Below, in pieces: positions 12,592 through 63,147 of a DNA stretch of 64,000 nucleotides; position 1 is the stretch's first letter, and the number at the start of each line of letters is the position of its first letter. The notes below the pieces were generated by a model, which was not told the origin of the DNA, did not search any database, and saw nothing but the letters and a program-made list of their open reading frames with translations. Source of the stretch: Escherichia virus TH22; the sequence record MT446396.1, one strand, 5' to 3'. The position numbers were made by a program, and so were the translations under genes.

Positions 12592-12764
12592 AAACTGCAT
12601 TAGTCTATACCGAAAAGTTAAATGGTGTCAAGGTCTGGAAACTTCTTATTAAAGGAAGTCCTACCGACCAGTTTATGGCCACCTGTGTAGGATTGTATAC
12701 TCGTCCTACTAAAAAGATGATTCGTCAATTTAAACGGTTACACCGCGCGTTTTATAAGATTTAA
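12588..12764 (+). CDS. hypothetical small basic protein
   Basis: 58 aa; below track cutoff. Confidence 0.3.
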   Translation: MKTALVYTEKLNGVKVWKLLIKGSPTDQFMATCVGLYTRPTKKMIRQFKRLHRAFYKI

Positions 12765-12799: not shown

Positions 12800-13273
12800 A
12801 TGTTGTTGACTGGCAAATTATACAAAGAAGAAAAACAAAAACTTTATGATGCACAAGCTGGTAAGTGTCCAATTTGCCACCGTGATTTGGACTCCGATGT
12901 TCAGGCCAACCATCTTGACCATGACCACGAATTGAACGGGCCAAAAGCTGGTAAGGTTCGCGGGTTACTATGCAATCTGTGCAATGGGACAGAAGGACAA
13001 ATGAAGCATAAGTTCAGCCGTTCGGGTCTGAAAAGTCGCGATGTTGACTACCTGGAATGGTTAGAGAGTTTGCTTGTCTATCTGAAATCTGATTATACCG
13101 AAAACAATATTCACCCCAATTTTGTAACAGACAAAGCCAAAGAGTTCGGTCGTCTGGGGAAAGAAGAAATGATTCGGGAAATGCTTTTGAATGGTATGAC
13201 TTATAATGAATCTGACACCAAAACACAATTAATGGCTTCATTTAAGAAGCAGCTTAGAAAGAGTTTAAAATGA
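12800..13273 (+). CDS. 49: endonuclease VII (Holliday-junction resolvase)
   Basis: 157 aa; Zn site CPICH...CNLCN, HLDHDHELNGPKAGKVRGLLC; near-collinear with T4 gp49. Confidence 0.9.
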   Translation: MLLTGKLYKEEKQKLYDAQAGKCPICHRDLDSDVQANHLDHDHELNGPKAGKVRGLLCNLCNGTEGQMKHKFSRSGLKSRDVDYLEWLESLLVYLKSDYTENNIHPNFVTDKAKEFGRLGKEEMIREMLLNGMTYNESDTKTQLMASFKKQLRKSLK

Positions 13274-17611: not shown

Positions 17612-17678
17612 AACGGGGTCATGGTATAATGACCCTAGGATAATAAAATTTTAATTTAATGAGACTGAGGAATATATC
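17612..17678 (+). promoter_or_regulatory. PeSL-type element (-10 inside a stem-loop)
   Basis: GGGGTCATGGTATAATGACCC hairpin with TATAAT in the loop. Confidence 0.5.
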
Positions 17679-18005
17679 ATGACTGCATCTATCACTAACA
17701 TCATCGCTAATTTCGCATTTGCTAAAGTTAACACTCTGATGAAATCTGGTTTTGTTACTCCTGAGATTCTGGACCAGTGGGAAGGCGATGTACAGAAACT
17801 GATTATTGCAGAAGGTCAGACAATGGGCAAAGCGCGTATTCGTGAAAGCCTTGTCCAGTATATCCTGAATGAATTTGATGTAGTAGCGTTTGGTTTACCG
17901 CTTCTGCGTGAAAACAAAGAAGTTTCTGATAAAGCTATCAAGCGTATGAAGGCCCAGCGCAAGAAGGGGTTTGTTGACCTGAAAATTGTTAAGGGTGCGA
18001 AATGA
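17679..18005 (+). CDS. hypothetical protein
   Basis: 108-aa ORF. Confidence 0.35.
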   Translation: MTASITNIIANFAFAKVNTLMKSGFVTPEILDQWEGDVQKLIIAEGQTMGKARIRESLVQYILNEFDVVAFGLPLLRENKEVSDKAIKRMKAQRKKGFVDLKIVKGAK

Positions 18006-36122: not shown

Positions 36123-36288
36123 GATTTCGGTCTTCCAGATTTTTGAAGAATATGAAATCGTGTCGCAAGACCAAGAAGCAATCCATGTTATCGCTGATGA
36201 TGGTGTTACCTGGATTATTCCGTTGTATCATGAAGACACTTATGAAGTGACTGATGCAAATGGTGATAAAGCTATCTTCGTTGTATAA
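36097..36288 (+). CDS. hypothetical acidic protein
   Basis: 63-aa ORF. Confidence 0.3.
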   Translation: MSAMCTGSKISVFQIFEEYEIVSQDQEAIHVIADDGVTWIIPLYHEDTYEVTDANGDKAIFVV

Positions 36289-36307: not shown

Positions 36308-36475
36308 ATGAAAACATTCAAAGATTTTATCAACGAAGATATGGCTGCCGGTGATGCAGGTGGAAACCCAACTAATATCGCAACAGGTACCACTTCCGGG
36401 GCAGTTGTCAATAAAGGCCCTGAACAAATCCCATCAAAAAAGCGTAAGAATAAAGACGATAAACCTACAGTATAA
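36308..36475 (+). CDS. hypothetical small Gly/Lys-rich protein
   Basis: 55 aa with GGGGTG-containing SD; followed by hairpin; below track cutoff. Confidence 0.3.
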   Translation: MKTFKDFINEDMAAGDAGGNPTNIATGTTSGAVVNKGPEQIPSKKRKNKDDKPTV

Positions 36476-36507: not shown

Positions 36508-37536
36508 ATGTCATATATTGATAGAGAATTTGCAGTCAGAGCTTTATCGTATCAACCACGTTATAGAGAAGTCACCGGGAGCACATTTAAGGCAAACTGT
36601 CGTTGCAAGGTTTGTGGTGACTCCCAGAAAGATTCGCACAAGGCTCGATTCTGGGCGTATACCAATCCGTCTGATGGTGCGGTTTACGTGAAATGTTTTA
36701 ACTGTGACTACTCCACGCATATAAGCAAATACATAAAAGAGTTTGAGCCGGATTTGCACCGGGAATATATGGTTGAGAAGTACAAGGAAAACGCCTTCGG
36801 TCGACAACGTAATGAAGTTGCAGAAGCTCCGAAAGAACAAGAAAAAACTCCGGTTATTGAAGAGCTTGCTTTTTGCGAAAGAATCGATACTTTACCAGAA
36901 GCGCATCCGATAGTTAAGTATGTGAAAAGTCGGTGTATTCCGAGCAATGTTTGGAACCGGTTATGGTTTACAAACAAATGGCCTGCATTAGTTAACTCCG
37001 TTAATCCTGGGACGTATAAGAATGAAACGAATGAACCACGCTTGGTTATTCCTATCTTCAACGGCAAAAAAGAAATCGAATCTTTCCAAGGACGAGCTCT
37101 TCGCAAAGATGCACCACAAAAATATATCACAATCAAAGCTCACCCAGAAGCTTCCAAAGTCTATGGCGTAGACAAGATTGATGAGCGCAAGCGCGTGTGG
37201 GTAATGGAAGGTCCGATTGATAGTTTGTTTATCCCTAACAGCATTGCGATAACCGGTGGAACATTAGCATTGGAAGCCGTTCCTTATGCTGAAACCCGAG
37301 TATGGGTAATGGACAACGAGCCAAGACATCCGGATACGATTAAACGTATGAAGAAGCTCGTTGAAGCGGGTGAAGCCGTTATGTTCTGGGACAATGCACC
37401 ATGGCATACGAAAGACATAAATGAGATGGTTAAATCGGAGGGCGCAACCCCTGAACAAATCGAATCATATATGGCCGATAACATTGCTCAAGGGTTGATG
37501 GCGAGAATGCGACTTTCGAAGTACGCAAAAGTTTAG
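36508..37536 (+). CDS. 61: DNA primase gp61
   Basis: 342 aa; N-terminal Zn ribbon CRCKVCG...CFNCD, TOPRIM-like EGPIDSLF / VMDNEP. Confidence 0.9.
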   Translation: MSYIDREFAVRALSYQPRYREVTGSTFKANCRCKVCGDSQKDSHKARFWAYTNPSDGAVYVKCFNCDYSTHISKYIKEFEPDLHREYMVEKYKENAFGRQRNEVAEAPKEQEKTPVIEELAFCERIDTLPEAHPIVKYVKSRCIPSNVWNRLWFTNKWPALVNSVNPGTYKNETNEPRLVIPIFNGKKEIESFQGRALRKDAPQKYITIKAHPEASKVYGVDKIDERKRVWVMEGPIDSLFIPNSIAITGGTLALEAVPYAETRVWVMDNEPRHPDTIKRMKKLVEAGEAVMFWDNAPWHTKDINEMVKSEGATPEQIESYMADNIAQGLMARMRLSKYAKV

Positions 37537-37654
37537 GAAGGGATTCCGGTAAGTTCCACAGAAAAACATCAAGAGCTAAAAAGCCCATGATGTTTCTTGT
37601 CTTTCTTACTGGTTAATTTCCAAATCCGATGGAATAATATTCACATTATTCCAT

Positions 37655-37852
37655 CTATATAAGGCCGATTAATGCCAGTAAAATATCTACAACTGATTCG
37701 AGTGCAATGACTGGTAATATAACACCATGTGTCAATGCAACAGGGGCAACAACGAAGTTCCAGAGTAGAACTAAACAGAGTATCGAAAGGACCAGAATCG
37801 TTCGCTTACGACTGCCTTTGATGGCTTGAATTAGACTAGATAGTTTGAGCAT
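37655..37852 (-). CDS. hypothetical small membrane protein (opposite strand)
   Basis: 65 aa from ATG with GGAGGA SD (track ORF 37655..37882 -); two hydrophobic helices; CATAAATA late-promoter-like element upstream on the - strand. Confidence 0.4.
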   Translation of the reverse strand: MLKLSSLIQAIKGSRKRTILVLSILCLVLLWNFVVAPVALTHGVILPVIALESVVDILLALIGLI

Positions 37853-37879
37853 ATATCCTCCTTCCGTGTATTTATGCTT

Positions 37880-37937
37880 CAAACCAATATGATATAATTA
37901 ACATACAAAATAACATGAATTGATAAGGAAAAATATA
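37880..37937 (+). promoter_or_regulatory. promoter upstream of gene 56
   Basis: TATAAT at 37893-37898. Confidence 0.4.
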
Positions 37938-38456
37938 ATGGCTCATTTTAATGAATGTTCACAACTGATTGCCGGTGTTGATAAAGCTGAAGAAGCTTAT
38001 GACAATGCAATTACAAAAGGTACTGACCCGCTGCAGATTATGCTTGATATGCAGAAATCATTGCAAGTTCGTCTGGCTACTGAAAAACCAGAATATAACT
38101 CACATCCAGATGAATTGGCTACTGCAGGTGATGTTGTTGCATGGCTTCGTAACCAGAAAGATTATGTCGACGACGAATTCCGTGAACTTCTGACTTCTCT
38201 CGGTGGTATGTCTAATGGCGAGAAAGCTGCATCTAGTGTATGGAAACCATGGAAAGTCCAACATGCTGAATTCCGTAATCGTCGTATTGATGAGTTGTCT
38301 CCCGAAGACCAGCTCGAAATTAAATTTGAGATGATTGATATCCTGCACTTTGTTCTGAACATGTTCCATGGCCTTGGACTGACTGCAGAAGAAATCTTTA
38401 AATTGTATTACCTGAAAAACGCTGAGAACTTTGCTCGTCAGGACCGGGGTTATTAA
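37938..38456 (+). CDS. 56: dCTPase/dUTPase-type NTP pyrophosphatase gp56 (MazG-like)
   Basis: 172 aa from MAHFNEC; collinear with T4 gp56 (EFRELLTSLG, MIDILHFVLN, FARQDRGY). Confidence 0.8.
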   Translation: MAHFNECSQLIAGVDKAEEAYDNAITKGTDPLQIMLDMQKSLQVRLATEKPEYNSHPDELATAGDVVAWLRNQKDYVDDEFRELLTSLGGMSNGEKAASSVWKPWKVQHAEFRNRRIDELSPEDQLEIKFEMIDILHFVLNMFHGLGLTAEEIFKLYYLKNAENFARQDRGY

Positions 38457-38458
38457 GT

Positions 38459-38466
38459 TATAAATA
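38459..38466 (+). promoter_or_regulatory. late promoter TATAAATA for soc
   Basis: exact TATAAATA about 30 nt upstream of the soc start. Confidence 0.55.
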
Positions 38467-38497: not shown

Positions 38498-38731
38498 ATG
38501 GGTGGTTTCGTTAATATCAAAACCTTTACGCATCCAGCTGGTGAAGGTAAAGAAGTTAAAGGTGTTGAAGTATCTGTTCCGTTTGAAATCTATTCAAATG
38601 AGCATCGTATTGCAAATGCACACTATCAGACTTTTCCTTCCGAAAAGGCCGCTTATGTCACCGTAGCGTCTAGTGCAGCTGATTGGCGAACTAAGAACGC
38701 GGCGATGTTTACGCCTACCCCAGTAGTTTAA
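38498..38731 (+). CDS. soc: small outer capsid protein Soc
   Basis: 77 aa; GFVNIKTF...AHYQTFPSEKAAY matches T4 Soc. Confidence 0.75.
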   Translation: MGGFVNIKTFTHPAGEGKEVKGVEVSVPFEIYSNEHRIANAHYQTFPSEKAAYVTVASSAADWRTKNAAMFTPTPVV

Positions 38732-48525: not shown

Positions 48526-50358
48526 ATGATGATTAATAATGAAATTAAAGTACTCTCGGACGTCGAGCATATCAAAAAACGTTCCGGGATGTATATTGGT
48601 TCCAGTTCAAATGAAGCGCATGAGCGATTCTTGTTTGGTGAATATAAGTCCGTAAGCTATGTTCCTGGTATTGTAAAACTGATTGATGAAATTATTGATA
48701 ACTCTGTTGATGAAGCAATTCGCACCAGTTTTAAATTTGCCAATAAAATTGATGTTCAAATTAAAGACAATCAGATTTCGGTTTCTGATAATGGCCGTGG
48801 TATTCCACAAGCAATGGTTACAGACCAAAACGGTGAACAAATCCCTGGCCCTGTTGCAGCATGGACTATTCCAAAAGCAGGTGGCAACTTCGGTGATGAT
48901 GCTGAACGTAAAACTGGCGGGATGAATGGCGTCGGGTCTTCTCTGACCAATATTTTCTCTGTATTGTTCACCGGGATTACCGCTGATGGTGCAAATGAAA
49001 TCACCGTTAACTGCTCCAATGGTATGGAAAACAAAGGTTGGTCTACCAAGAAATCTAAGGGTAAAGGTACAACTGTTATTTTTGTTCCGGACTTCAGTCA
49101 CTTTGAAGAAAATAGTCTGTCCCAGATTTATCTGGATATTACATTGGACCGTCTGCAGACTCTTGCGGTTGTTTATCCGGATATTCAGTTTACCTTTAAT
49201 GGTAAAAAGGTTGATGGCAATTTCAAGAAGTTCGCCAAGCAATTCGGAACCGAAGTTGTTATCCAGGAAACTGATACAGTATCGATGGCCTTTACGACTA
49301 GCCCGGATGGTTTCCGCCAGTTGACTTATGTCAACAACATTCATACAAAGAATGGTGGGCACCACGTTGAATGTGTTATGGATGATATCTGTGAACATCT
49401 TCAGCCAGCCATTAAACGCAAATATAAAGGCATTGAGGTGACAAAGGCACGAGTTAAAGAATGCCTCACCATGCTTATGTTCATCCGCGATATGAGCAAC
49501 ATGCGATTTGATTCCCAGACTAAGGAGCGATTGACTTCTCCGGCTGGTGAAATTCGAAATCACATTAAGATTGATGCCAAGAAAATCGCACAAGCTATTC
49601 TGAAAAATGAACCGCTGATTATGCCGATTGTTGAAGCTGCATTAGCCCGTAAATTGGCTGCAGAGAAAGCAGCAGAGACCAAGGCGAATAAGAAAGCTTC
49701 AAAGGCCAAGGTGCAAAAGCATATCAAGGCTAACGAATGGGGCAATGATAAGCTGGAAACGACTCTGTTCCTGACCGAAGGTGATTCTGCAACCGGTCCA
49801 TTTATCAAGGTCCGCGACCGTGAATTACAAGGTGCTTATCCGTTACGTGGTAAGTTCAAAAACACATGGGGTCTGAAAGCTGTTGACGTTATGAAGAACG
49901 CCGAAGCCTTTGATGTTTGTGCGATTACTGGTTTAACGATTGGACAACCGGCCGAGAATATGAATTACCGAAACATTGCTATCATGACAGATGCGGATGT
50001 GGATGGTGTTGGTAGTATCTATCCATCGTTATTGGCGTTTTTCAGTAACTGGCCGGAGCTGTTCCATGAAGGGCGAATTCGCTTTGTGAAAACTCCTGTT
50101 ATTATTGCGCAGCTCAAAGATAAACAAGAATGGTTTTATTCTCTTCCTGATTATGAAGAAGCTAAGGATAAACTTCCGAAGCATACTATCAGATATATAA
50201 AGGGACTTGGTTCTCTGGAAGATGCCGAGTACAAACGCGTATTGCTCGAACCGGTATTCGAAGTTGTTCAATTGCCCGACAACTGGAAAGAACTGTTCGA
50301 AATGCTCTTCGGTAAAGATTCCCAGCAGCGTAAAGATTGGATGAATGCAACACTATAA
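48526..50358 (+). CDS. 39: DNA topoisomerase II large subunit (GyrB-like), fused 39+60 type
   Basis: 610 aa; GHKL ATPase and TOPRIM; single uninterrupted ORF covering the part T4 encodes separately as gene 60. Confidence 0.9.
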   Translation: MMINNEIKVLSDVEHIKKRSGMYIGSSSNEAHERFLFGEYKSVSYVPGIVKLIDEIIDNSVDEAIRTSFKFANKIDVQIKDNQISVSDNGRGIPQAMVTDQNGEQIPGPVAAWTIPKAGGNFGDDAERKTGGMNGVGSSLTNIFSVLFTGITADGANEITVNCSNGMENKGWSTKKSKGKGTTVIFVPDFSHFEENSLSQIYLDITLDRLQTLAVVYPDIQFTFNGKKVDGNFKKFAKQFGTEVVIQETDTVSMAFTTSPDGFRQLTYVNNIHTKNGGHHVECVMDDICEHLQPAIKRKYKGIEVTKARVKECLTMLMFIRDMSNMRFDSQTKERLTSPAGEIRNHIKIDAKKIAQAILKNEPLIMPIVEAALARKLAAEKAAETKANKKASKAKVQKHIKANEWGNDKLETTLFLTEGDSATGPFIKVRDRELQGAYPLRGKFKNTWGLKAVDVMKNAEAFDVCAITGLTIGQPAENMNYRNIAIMTDADVDGVGSIYPSLLAFFSNWPELFHEGRIRFVKTPVIIAQLKDKQEWFYSLPDYEEAKDKLPKHTIRYIKGLGSLEDAEYKRVLLEPVFEVVQLPDNWKELFEMLFGKDSQQRKDWMNATL

Positions 50359-50400: not shown

Positions 50401-50553
50401 ATGAAAAAGTGGTGGGTTACGTTGTCAAATGGCGAATACGGTTATCTGTGGGCCGAGACTAAACCTCTGTTTGCATCCTTTGTCACCATTATGTGCGAGA
50501 CCTGGGATGGTGAATACTATACCGCATATGGGCAAGTCTATAAAGTTGAGTAG
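50401..50553 (+). CDS. hypothetical small Trp/Tyr-rich protein
   Basis: 50 aa; AGGAGAAG SD; followed by terminator; below track cutoff. Confidence 0.3.
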   Translation: MKKWWVTLSNGEYGYLWAETKPLFASFVTIMCETWDGEYYTAYGQVYKVE

Positions 50554-62191: not shown

Positions 62192-62467
62192 ATGACTAAA
62201 TTTGAAATCGTTTCTGAAATTGTTACTGTAACTTCAATTTTGATTAAAACCGACCGGGAAGATATTACGATGAAGCGTGATGTGTTTATCGCGTTTTTGA
62301 ATGAGTTGGGATTGAGGAATGAGAATGGTAATGAGTTAAACAATGTATCGTTTAACAAGTTGTTTAAAAGTTTATCTGAAGATGAAATTGAACAAATCAT
62401 TGAACAATTTAACGAAGGATTCGAAGATATACACCGTTATCTTATGATGTATACCTCCGGATTCTAA
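62192..62467 (+). CDS. asiA: anti-sigma70 factor AsiA
   Basis: 91 aa; EIVTVTSILIK..REDI...FIAFLNE.G...FNEGFE..HRYL.MYT matches T4 AsiA; convergent with t. Confidence 0.75.
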   Translation: MTKFEIVSEIVTVTSILIKTDREDITMKRDVFIAFLNELGLRNENGNELNNVSFNKLFKSLSEDEIEQIIEQFNEGFEDIHRYLMMYTSGF

Positions 62468-63117
62468 CGTGTACGCCCAAGCGTACGACCTGCTTGTCCA
62501 CACATAGCAGAAAGCCTATCAAAACCAAGGATAGGTTTTTGCTTATACCAGTACAGCGAGACTGTACCTGCATAAACGTTTTCCAAATTAAAGAATGGGC
62601 AGCTGAACATATATGAGAAGCTGCTTTTTTTCTTTGTTGGTAAGAATACAGATTCCGTACTGGATTCAAAATAATTACCATTAACCCCCGCCAAATATTC
62701 TGCTGAAGTTTTATCTATTGGAAACCCACCCAAATTTTTTTCGTCGACTGTATCAGGCAATATCCCCTCATATCCCACCATATCCACAAAGTAGTTAAGG
62801 TTAGTTGGTCTAAAAGAATATATTGCTGTAAAGTCTGCTCCACTTGACGAGTGGACTATCTGGATTTGCTCGATAGCTGCAATTTTAAATCTGTTATCCT
62901 GGTCTTGCCTTATCATTTCTGTGTACGAGGCATATGAAGCATCCCTGTACGCATCTAAAATTGCATCACCTTTATACCAGATTACCACCATTAAAAATAA
63001 TAGAACAATAACTAGTACCCGGGAAAAAACAACTTTCCCGGTCGCATTATCTTTAAAAATTCTATCAAGAAGTCCAAAAAGTAGATCGGGTATTGATATT
63101 CCTACTTTTGGTTCCAT
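62464..63117 (-). CDS. t: holin T
   Basis: 217 aa; single N-terminal TM; near-collinear with T4 T (DLLFGLLDRIFKDNATGKV..., YSFRP.NLNYFVD, YMFSCP.FNL.N.YAGT). Confidence 0.9.
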   Translation of the reverse strand: MEPKVGISIPDLLFGLLDRIFKDNATGKVVFSRVLVIVLLFLMVVIWYKGDAILDAYRDASYASYTEMIRQDQDNRFKIAAIEQIQIVHSSSGADFTAIYSFRPTNLNYFVDMVGYEGILPDTVDEKNLGGFPIDKTSAEYLAGVNGNYFESSTESVFLPTKKKSSFSYMFSCPFFNLENVYAGTVSLYWYKQKPILGFDRLSAMCGQAGRTLGRTR

Positions 63118-63139: not shown

Positions 63140-63147
63140 TATTTATA
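63140..63147 (-). promoter_or_regulatory. late promoter TATAAATA for t
   Basis: - strand TATAAATA 20 nt upstream of SD AAGGAGAAAGT-ATG. Confidence 0.55.

Follow-up and report, generated by a model that had tools for sequence, protein, structure and literature searches.

What does a short open reading frame (ORF) encode when it lies opposite to its neighbors in the replication block of a T4-like phage, and is it a gene at all? The question is raised by a 64,000-nucleotide stretch of Escherichia virus TH22 (sequence record MT446396.1; hereafter, the window), in which the interval between genes 61 and 56, both on the + strand, carries an ORF for a small membrane protein of 65 amino acids on the − strand (37655-37852; ATG at 37852, stop codon TAG at 37655-37657). 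Its predicted product is MLKLSSLIQAIKGSRKRTILVLSILCLVLLWNFVVAPVALTHGVILPVIALESVVDILLALIGLI (MLKLSS...ALIGLI). An earlier note, made from the letters of the window, had pointed to a hydrophobic 65-amino acid − strand ORF with a strong Shine–Dalgarno sequence at this place, and all the elements it described are present. We conclude, with a probability of roughly 0.8, that this ORF is a genuine T4-like phage gene, most probably transcribed late in infection. What the protein does at the membrane is a separate matter, on which our proposal is far more tentative.

The case for a gene begins with its start and its relatives. A mechanical ORF list opens the frame at a TTG codon (37882, giving 75 amino acids), but homologues favor the ATG at 37852, three nucleotides ahead of which lies the Shine–Dalgarno sequence AAGGAGGA (37856-37863, − strand); a GGAGG-type site stands at the equivalent place in most lineages examined. 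The product matches the PHROG family phrog_2024, annotated as being of unknown function, over its full length (E 6.4e-26, residues 1-65 on profile positions 1-65 of 65), and so do the T4, RB69-like, and distant members, as well as a second subtype, B, described below; the window copy is of the A type. With tblastn, the protein was matched in 697 phage records, and in 689 the match was near full length; the records are from phages of Escherichia, Shigella, Yersinia, Salmonella, Citrobacter, and Enterobacter. Two divergent subtypes add 182 and 97 further records, which include phages of Klebsiella, Citrobacter, Salmonella, Enterobacter, Edwardsiella, Kosakonia, and Pectobacterium. When 1.84 billion representative proteins were searched exhaustively with a profile, only eight clusters came back, all of 45-68 amino acids; thus, the family is confined to T4-like phages of enterobacteria.

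The position of the gene is as constant as its frame. In every locus with readable flanks, the ORF is antisense to its neighbors, with homologues converging on the primase gene 61, or on a small gene that immediately follows it, and lying upstream of dam or gene 56. This antisense slot is shared by T4, fPS-65, JS09, RB69, and metagenomic contigs, where some of the syntenic products align with the window protein only at the profile level.

Selection has acted on the amino acid sequence. Pairwise Nei–Gojobori estimates of the ratio of nonsynonymous to synonymous substitution rates (dN/dS) range from 0 to 0.18 within the genus Tequatrovirus and from 0.08 to 0.13 among the RB69-like Mosigvirus copies, and stand at ~0.1 in comparisons with deeper relatives, for which dS approaches saturation. 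The window copy is 43-51% identical to the T4 and RB69 copies, and an alignment of 14 A-type sequences has M1, L4, L7, K12, W31-N32-F33, P37, G43, P47, V55, D56, A60, and L64 invariant; W31, P37, G43, and the acidic residue at position 52 persist when the most distant members are added. A frame that is short and has no entry in the T4 reference annotation might be taken for a chance ORF in an intergenic region, with the palindrome next to it simply terminating transcription in both directions between genes 61 and 56. The first half of this reading is refuted by the conservation of frame, length, and upstream motif across genera and metagenomic contigs and by the purifying selection detected; the second half fares no better, as discussed below for the palindrome. 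According to the earlier note, a reading frame without conservation in relatives would have spoken against a gene; the frame is clearly conserved, and the gene is real.

T4 is among the most thoroughly annotated viruses, yet its intact 66-amino acid member of this family is unannotated. The T4 RefSeq record NC_000866.4 has no annotation in the 309-bp stretch between dam (which ends at 17625) and gene 61 (which begins at 17935), and a resequenced T4 record is equally bare there. The T4 ORF runs from 17738 to 17938 on the + strand of NC_000866.4 (locus L031:1239-1439; also L003:1492-1692), is preceded by an AGGAGG site and GATAAATA, and encodes a protein 49% identical to that of the window. In a large protein collection, the exact T4 reference protein comes solely from raw-read assemblies, not from NCBI annotation. 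The RB69 copy, RB69ORF029w, is listed as a 'hypothetical protein' and, unlike its neighbors, carries no note of T4 similarity; this name and product description follow from the missing annotation of the T4 copy. The ORF itself is therefore not new, since the window protein is identical in sequence to UPEC07 QUL77728.1, a deposited hypothetical protein, and phrog_2024 already covers the family.

The timing of expression is suggested by a motif 16 nucleotides upstream of the ATG, CATAAATA (37869-37876, − strand), a predicted variant of the T4-type late promoter that deviates from the consensus TATAAATA (at −13 to −6) at one position, −13. In T4, 32 of 50 late-promoter sites are perfect copies of TATAAATA, another nine carry A at −13, and the remainder show other single deviations, and such variants are used in vitro (Geiduschek and Kassavetis, PMC2988020). 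Position −13 is the most variable one in T4 late promoters (PMC2988020; PMC1524935), and T is poorly conserved there in relatives (Nolan et al., PMC1524935), so that CATAAATA is a one-position variant at the most tolerant position. The motif has also been retained: in 25 of the 26 loci read, [A/C/G]ATAAATA precedes the start codon by 14-33 nucleotides and, where paralogues stand in tandem, is found ahead of the first gene. The DNA around it is unalignable between genera, and the upstream neighbor varies (dam, 56, and others).

The distribution of the motif core across the window points the same way. ATAAATA is depleted about threefold, with seven copies on both strands against 22.0 ± 4.9 expected, and CATAAATA is, therefore, not a chance hit. 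All seven copies lie shortly upstream of an ORF start, which makes ATAAATA alone a very specific late-promoter marker in this genome. Four of the ORFs so marked are classic T4 late genes, i.e., rI (1744-2088; site at 1714, +), the endonuclease VII gene 49 (12800-13273; site at 12764, +), soc (38498-38731; site at 38460, +), and the holin gene t (62464-63117; site at 63140, −), and the distance between motif and ATG at the 65-amino acid ORF (site at 37869, −) is within the range of these four. The two remaining sites are perfect copies of TATAAATA on the + strand. One, at 36285, precedes a 61.1-like ORF of 55 amino acids (36308-36475; phrog_1823, of unknown function); it lies just upstream of gene 61, so that late transcripts may run on into the primase gene in sense orientation as well. 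The other, at 50355, precedes a 50-amino acid ORF (50401-50553, MKKWWVTLSNGEYGYLW...) that may be another small late gene; this site overlaps the last codons of a 610-amino acid gene ending at 50358, and the 50-amino acid ORF is on the early strand.

Because the motif is conserved upstream of the ORF and depleted elsewhere, the gene is probably late. We read CATAAATA as a conserved sub-consensus promoter that is probably weak; the late-promoter-like element of the earlier note thus behaves like a real, if variant, late promoter. A sigma-70-type promoter was also considered for the ORF and discarded: one 9/12 match was found on the − strand (37961 to 37932), and the number of matches in the region equals the shuffle expectation.

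The late motif shares its bases with a second predicted promoter. On the + strand, gene 56 is preceded by a middle-promoter-like site, TTA-TGCTTCA (the Mot box; TTATGCTTCA)-N11-TATAAT (37872-37898), which fits the middle-promoter consensus (a/t)(a/t)(a/t)TGCTTtA N11-13 TataAT quoted in PMC1524935. The Mot box and the − strand late motif overlap back to back, and the C that the late motif has at −13 pairs with the G in the TGCTT of the Mot box. We considered whether the conservation of ATAAATA merely reflects its being the A/T-rich portion of the Mot box of gene 56 and rejected this account, since the motif persists in T4 and in four further lineages (L016, L018, L019, and L030) in which no TGCTT adjoins it.

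Given a gene, what kind of protein does it specify? An AlphaFold2 model built from a 14-sequence alignment has helices at residues 2-11, 15-41, and 51-64, with a mean predicted local distance difference test (pLDDT) score of 81 and a predicted template modeling (pTM) score of 0.57. All positive charges are N-terminal (K3, K12, R15, K16, and R17), and the only acidic residues are E52 and D56. By inspection of the sequence, trypsin would leave a single tractable peptide of ~9 residues, the rest being a hydrophobic one of ~48, so that ordinary tryptic proteomics would be expected to overlook the protein. On the biological hydrophobicity scale, scored as the best 19-residue window, the first hydrophobic segment is favorable as a membrane helix in all members (delta-G −2.4 to +2.8 kcal/mol), with residues 18-36 of the window protein reaching −2.4 kcal/mol, i.e., at least one transmembrane helix, as a holin would have. 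The C-terminal segment is unfavorable in every member (+3.1 kcal/mol in the window copy and up to +13 in distant members). A single transmembrane segment, residues 21-41, was predicted for RB69ORF029w as well (Nolan et al., PMC1524935 supplement). The earlier description of a two-helix hydrophobic protein is, thus, roughly right for the modeled window copy but does not extend to the family, where only the first segment scores as a transmembrane helix. Together with the N-terminal charges, this pattern favors a single-pass protein with a cytoplasmic N-terminus (N-in), whose short C-terminal helix would lie in or on the outer leaflet.

Downstream of the stop codon, the 118-nucleotide spacer that separates the ORF from gene 61 has a history of its own. 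In the relatives VR25 and VR26, a second gene of 66 amino acids begins 8 nucleotides past the stop of the ORF, encodes MGTLFYQIWKLTSKKDKKLIMGFLALDIFLWNLLVVPIAATQGVHLPQVTMGHIHSIIGYFTGIPS, and ends with a stop codon that shares bases with that of gene 61. The B type, as we call it, is a paralogue of A, and the spacer, judged by its alignment to VR25, VR26, and VR20, is its pseudogene remnant (37533-37646, − strand): when an intact B protein was searched with phmmer against the six-frame translation of the window, the remnant was matched at E 1.1e-5 and the A gene at E 1.2e-6, and the related B copy of ESCO47 matches phrog_2024 at E 8e-20. No further paralogue was found in the window besides the remnant. 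The decay can be followed stepwise by comparing the window with other loci (L021:907-1107, L020, and L022). B is intact in VR25 and VR26; in VR20, its ATG is followed by TGA at codon 2 and the gene has a 2-nucleotide deletion, i.e., a nonsense mutation and a frameshift; and the window clade has both VR20 lesions plus an 85-nucleotide deletion between TTACYGG microhomologies. Other Gapriverviruses (SP18, PSD2001, P896, and P8) match only residues 28-66 of B. The B type occurs in 112 phage records, including Dhakavirus (JS98, JS10, and Bp7), Marfa-like Klebsiella phages, Enterobacter phages, and Pectobacterium phage PM2. Gaprivervirus has the order A-B (L021:701-1107), the reverse of the order B-A, with an 8-nucleotide overlap, in two Mosigvirus-like genomes (L010:2305-2698 and L012:2305-2698), which suggests independent duplication or recombination between subtypes.

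Two hairpins lie within this remnant. The first is a palindrome that abuts the stop codon of the 65-amino acid ORF, GATGGAATAAT-ATTCAC-ATTATTCCATC (37628-37655), with perfect 11-bp arms (37628-37638 and 37645-37655) around a 6-nucleotide loop. No other perfect hairpin with a stem of 11 bp or more (loop 3-8) occurs in the window, where Markov simulations lead one to expect 0.13; this uniqueness is suggestive but, on its own, not decisive. The second hairpin (37564-37595) has 14-nucleotide arms, a 4-nucleotide loop, and a U-run following on the − strand, where a terminator was called. The spacer as a whole folds far more stably than shuffled sequence (z −6.8 on the − strand and −5.9 on the + strand), and a search of Rfam with the spacer and its flanks gave nothing above the gathering threshold (best SpF11, 29.2 bits against a gathering score of 54).

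The palindrome does not look like an intrinsic terminator: its stem is AT-rich, with G-C pairs at 3 of 11 positions, its tail is GGAUUUGG and not a U-tract, and the terminator scan made no call on it. The equivalent region of VR25 is an imperfect inverted repeat (−9.2 kcal/mol) that six clustered substitutions have turned into the perfect palindrome of the window (−13.5 kcal/mol). A designed bidirectional terminator is ruled out by the alignment to intact B genes, which gives the palindrome an origin in coding sequence. The palindrome marked by the earlier note is, hence, present and slightly larger than the ~37631-37652 it gave, but it is not a purpose-built element between convergent genes; it is the ribosome-binding site and start region of the decayed B gene. 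The second hairpin has likewise gained stability, at −19.3 kcal/mol on the − strand against −10.2 kcal/mol for the equivalent sequence of the intact gene in VR25. It is the more terminator-like of the two and could work in both directions. A plausible role for the strengthened hairpins is to end or stabilize the late mRNA.

The loop of the palindrome (37639-37644) is exactly inverted relative to EAWsc9 (ATTCAC versus GTGAAT on the + strand), with the arms unchanged; the two phages are 97.6% identical over the surrounding 2-kb stretch. Template switching is the usual explanation for a perfected palindrome with an inverted loop, and the correction of quasi-palindromes and inversion of their loops by this route were reportedly first described in T4 rII by Ripley. 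The locus resembles that system in that an imperfect repeat (VR25 and VR20) was perfected by the six substitutions and its loop inverted; here, the mechanism would be read from the sequence pattern alone.

These features bear on whether the RNA, and not the protein, could be the key product. Late transcription over the 3′ end of gene 61, and over the gene 56 promoter, might shut off early and middle expression, and the back-to-back overlap of the late-type promoter with the Mot box would suit such a role. In T4, RB69, and others, moreover, the ORF stop overlaps the gene 61 stop, so the transcripts must converge. However, it is the amino acids that are conserved, with dN/dS down to ~0.1 and W, P, and G positions that never vary; also kept are the ATG and its strong ribosome-binding site, and in the window the RNA would meet two stable hairpins before it reached gene 61. 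An antisense RNA as the key product is, therefore, improbable. The earlier note had offered an antisense regulator of 56/61 as a candidate; given the purifying selection on the amino acid sequence, such regulation is not the main selected function, and an antisense effect would be a side benefit at most.

The genomic setting adds context for what the protein might do. The 2-kb stretch around the ORF is 100% identical to that of Escherichia phages UPEC07 and TH55 and 88-99% identical to other Gaprivervirus members (Straboviridae, Tevenvirinae), which identifies the window as coming from a T4-like phage. The gene order (dmd, 61.4-like, sp, 61.2/61.1-like, 61, the ORF, 56, soc, and on towards modB) is that of the T4 early/middle replication block, where, as the earlier note observed, opposite-strand genes are rare. 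The ORF converges on gene 61, the DNA primase (36508-37536, +; phrog_47, E 4.4e-95), and diverges from gene 56, a dCTPase/nucleoside triphosphate pyrophosphohydrolase (37938-38456, +; phrog_173, E 4.5e-45); both identifications agree with the annotations of relatives. The 61-56 interval is a hotspot for insertions and deletions. In close relatives (phages RZ, P479, P8, and DK-13), a homing-endonuclease gene is inserted there. The lysis genes already in the window are the holin gene t (phrog_860, − strand) and the antiholin gene rI (phrog_1246).

From these elements, a path from promoter to product can be proposed. Late transcription of the T4 type requires gp55, gp33, the gp45 clamp, and DNA replication. 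RNA polymerase bearing gp55 would read the motif as a sub-consensus late promoter and start near 37863, giving a monocistronic mRNA with a leader of ~11 nucleotides that would end at the two remnant hairpins, before running far into antisense gene 61. The product would be a low-abundance, bitopic inner-membrane protein. Its basic N-terminus (K3, K12, R15, K16, and R17) would stay in the cytoplasm, and one long helix (~residues 18-41, with the invariant W-N-F and Pro37) would cross the membrane. Beyond it, a turn (with Gly43 conserved, His or Asn as the usual residue at position 42, and Pro47) would lead to a short C-terminal helix that carries a conserved acidic residue (Glu/Asp52) and rests in or on the outer leaflet.

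Homology offers little guidance to function. Neither the protein nor its distant members has a meaningful match in Pfam, NCBIfam, or PADLOC, and no relative was found in the PDB by sequence profile search or Foldseek; a Foldseek search of BFVD returned the protein's own family plus one non-significant match named 'holin' (E 2.7). Being small, membrane-embedded, and probably late, the product might itself be a holin, pinholin, or antiholin, forming or gating lethal membrane lesions and so setting the time of lysis. Two automated annotations name relatives 'holin' (EAWsc9 and OE5505), one distant member weakly matches a PHROG holin family (E 0.012), and the tandem paralogues of some phages have a possible parallel in holin/antiholin pairs. 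However, the window protein matches no lysis family of Pfam, NCBIfam, or PHROG even at E 1-10, and structural comparison brought up neither a named holin outside its own family nor any PDB entry. Its charge is N-terminal, no basic residue follows position 17, and its end, LLALIGLI, is hydrophobic, where holins typically have a hydrophilic, highly charged C-terminal domain. The genome, furthermore, already has t and rI, and the B paralogue has been lost repeatedly without replacement. A holin is, for these reasons, unlikely, and the 'holin-like' candidate of the earlier note found neither profile nor structural support.

A role in membrane protection or exclusion is a further option, directed against a host membrane defense, a superinfecting phage, or the re-adsorption of progeny late in infection. 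Besides the inferred membrane location, the family is restricted and fast-evolving, and its subtype turnover, tandem duplication, and repeated loss of one copy form a pattern known from host-interaction genes. The subtypes are, moreover, spread unevenly over host genera, with A in phages of Escherichia and Shigella, and B and others in those of Klebsiella, Enterobacter, and Citrobacter. On the other side, the PADLOC library of defense and counter-defense systems gave one chance-level match (E 0.049, to a Type II restriction enzyme model). Imm and Sp, the exclusion proteins known from T4, are encoded by early genes, whereas the window ORF has a late-type promoter. We consider an exclusion factor possible but doubtful, and the membrane-active toxin and the exclusion peptide named as candidates in the earlier note are likewise guesses.

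Our own proposal, which we offer as a guess by analogy, is that the protein may be a late accessory at the interface of inner membrane and periplasm that tunes the envelope, or the timing or inhibition of lysis, without itself being a holin. Such an accessory would act through helix-helix contacts within the membrane or through contacts at the outer leaflet, and so adjust the machinery to which the block's other late-promoter genes (rI and t) belong. A bolder version, which we think improbable as it stands, is that it represents an overlooked, strictly late inner-membrane component of the T-even phages, either a partner of T and RI in superinfection sensing and lysis timing or an anchor for late assembly, with the sub-consensus promoter limiting the dose of a potentially toxic protein.

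Several observations weigh against the picture of a late, single-pass membrane protein encoded by a conserved gene. Constraint is weaker within Gaprivervirus itself, where dN/dS is 0.35-0.63 on small counts. The promoter never has the consensus T at −13 in any gene copy (C in 10, G in 6, and A in 8 among the loci read), and C or G at this position is unusual, so its activity could be low or nil. One lineage, L006, has no motif, and an earlier hidden Markov model scan of RB69 called no late promoter before RB69ORF029w. For this particularly hydrophobic copy, with its C-terminal segment at +3.1 kcal/mol, a two-pass hairpin is an admissible topology. The functional proposal draws on timing, membrane location, and analogy alone. 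In the literature, we found no paper naming the RB69 ORF, its accessions, or the PHROG identifier, and none on the gene among studies that included T4 ribosome profiling and small ORFs or late and antisense transcription near gene 61 and dam.

Four things appear not to be on record, i.e., that T4 has a homologue which its reference annotation lacks; that a late-promoter variant with a base other than T at −13 is conserved; that A and B form a paralogue system with repeated decay; and where the palindrome comes from. That a gene has been kept in one antisense slot across many T4-like genera makes a specific late role at the cell envelope likely, and an unannotated, widely conserved late membrane gene should come as a mild to moderate surprise to a T4 specialist. 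The locus is also a natural example of late and middle promoters that share bases on opposite strands and, in compact form, of stepwise pseudogene decay (intact, nonsense plus frameshift, and microhomology deletion) accompanied by palindrome perfection and loop inversion of the template-switching kind. Its practical value is modest and lies in the annotation of small phage genes and in a candidate for lysis or host-range engineering.

Among known systems, the closest is the family itself. RB69ORF029w and the other members of phrog_2024 are proteins of 60-68 amino acids encoded antisense beside gene 61 behind the same upstream motif; there is no difference in kind between them and the window ORF, which is the Gaprivervirus 'A' subtype. 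Other systems compared include the type I toxins (e.g., Hok, TisB, and Ldr), which are likewise short, hydrophobic inner-membrane peptides. No homology to them was found, and nothing points to a dedicated repressor RNA in antisense; the window ORF has a strong, exposed ribosome-binding site, not a sequestered one, and the family occurs only in virulent T4-like phages. The small class II holins, pinholins, and T7-type holins, such as phage 21 S68 and T7 gp17.5, are similar in size and have one or two hydrophobic helices. Proteins of the S68 and gp17.5 types carry a charged cytoplasmic C-terminal tail and are usually encoded in a lysis cassette, whereas the window protein has its charge at the N-terminus, a hydrophobic C-terminus, no cassette, and no profile match.

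The T4 holin T and antiholin RI offer another comparison. Both are late inner-membrane lysis proteins with a cytoplasmic N-terminus and an external C-terminus. Neither has sequence or profile similarity to the window protein, and both have large periplasmic domains (217 and 114 amino acids here), where the window protein has ~24 residues after its helix; the promoter of the window ORF is, in addition, a non-consensus variant. The likeness lies in architecture and position: T has a single strong membrane helix and a cytoplasmic N-terminus, which the window family probably shares, and t and rI, like the window ORF, have a late-promoter motif ahead of them within an otherwise early part of the genome.

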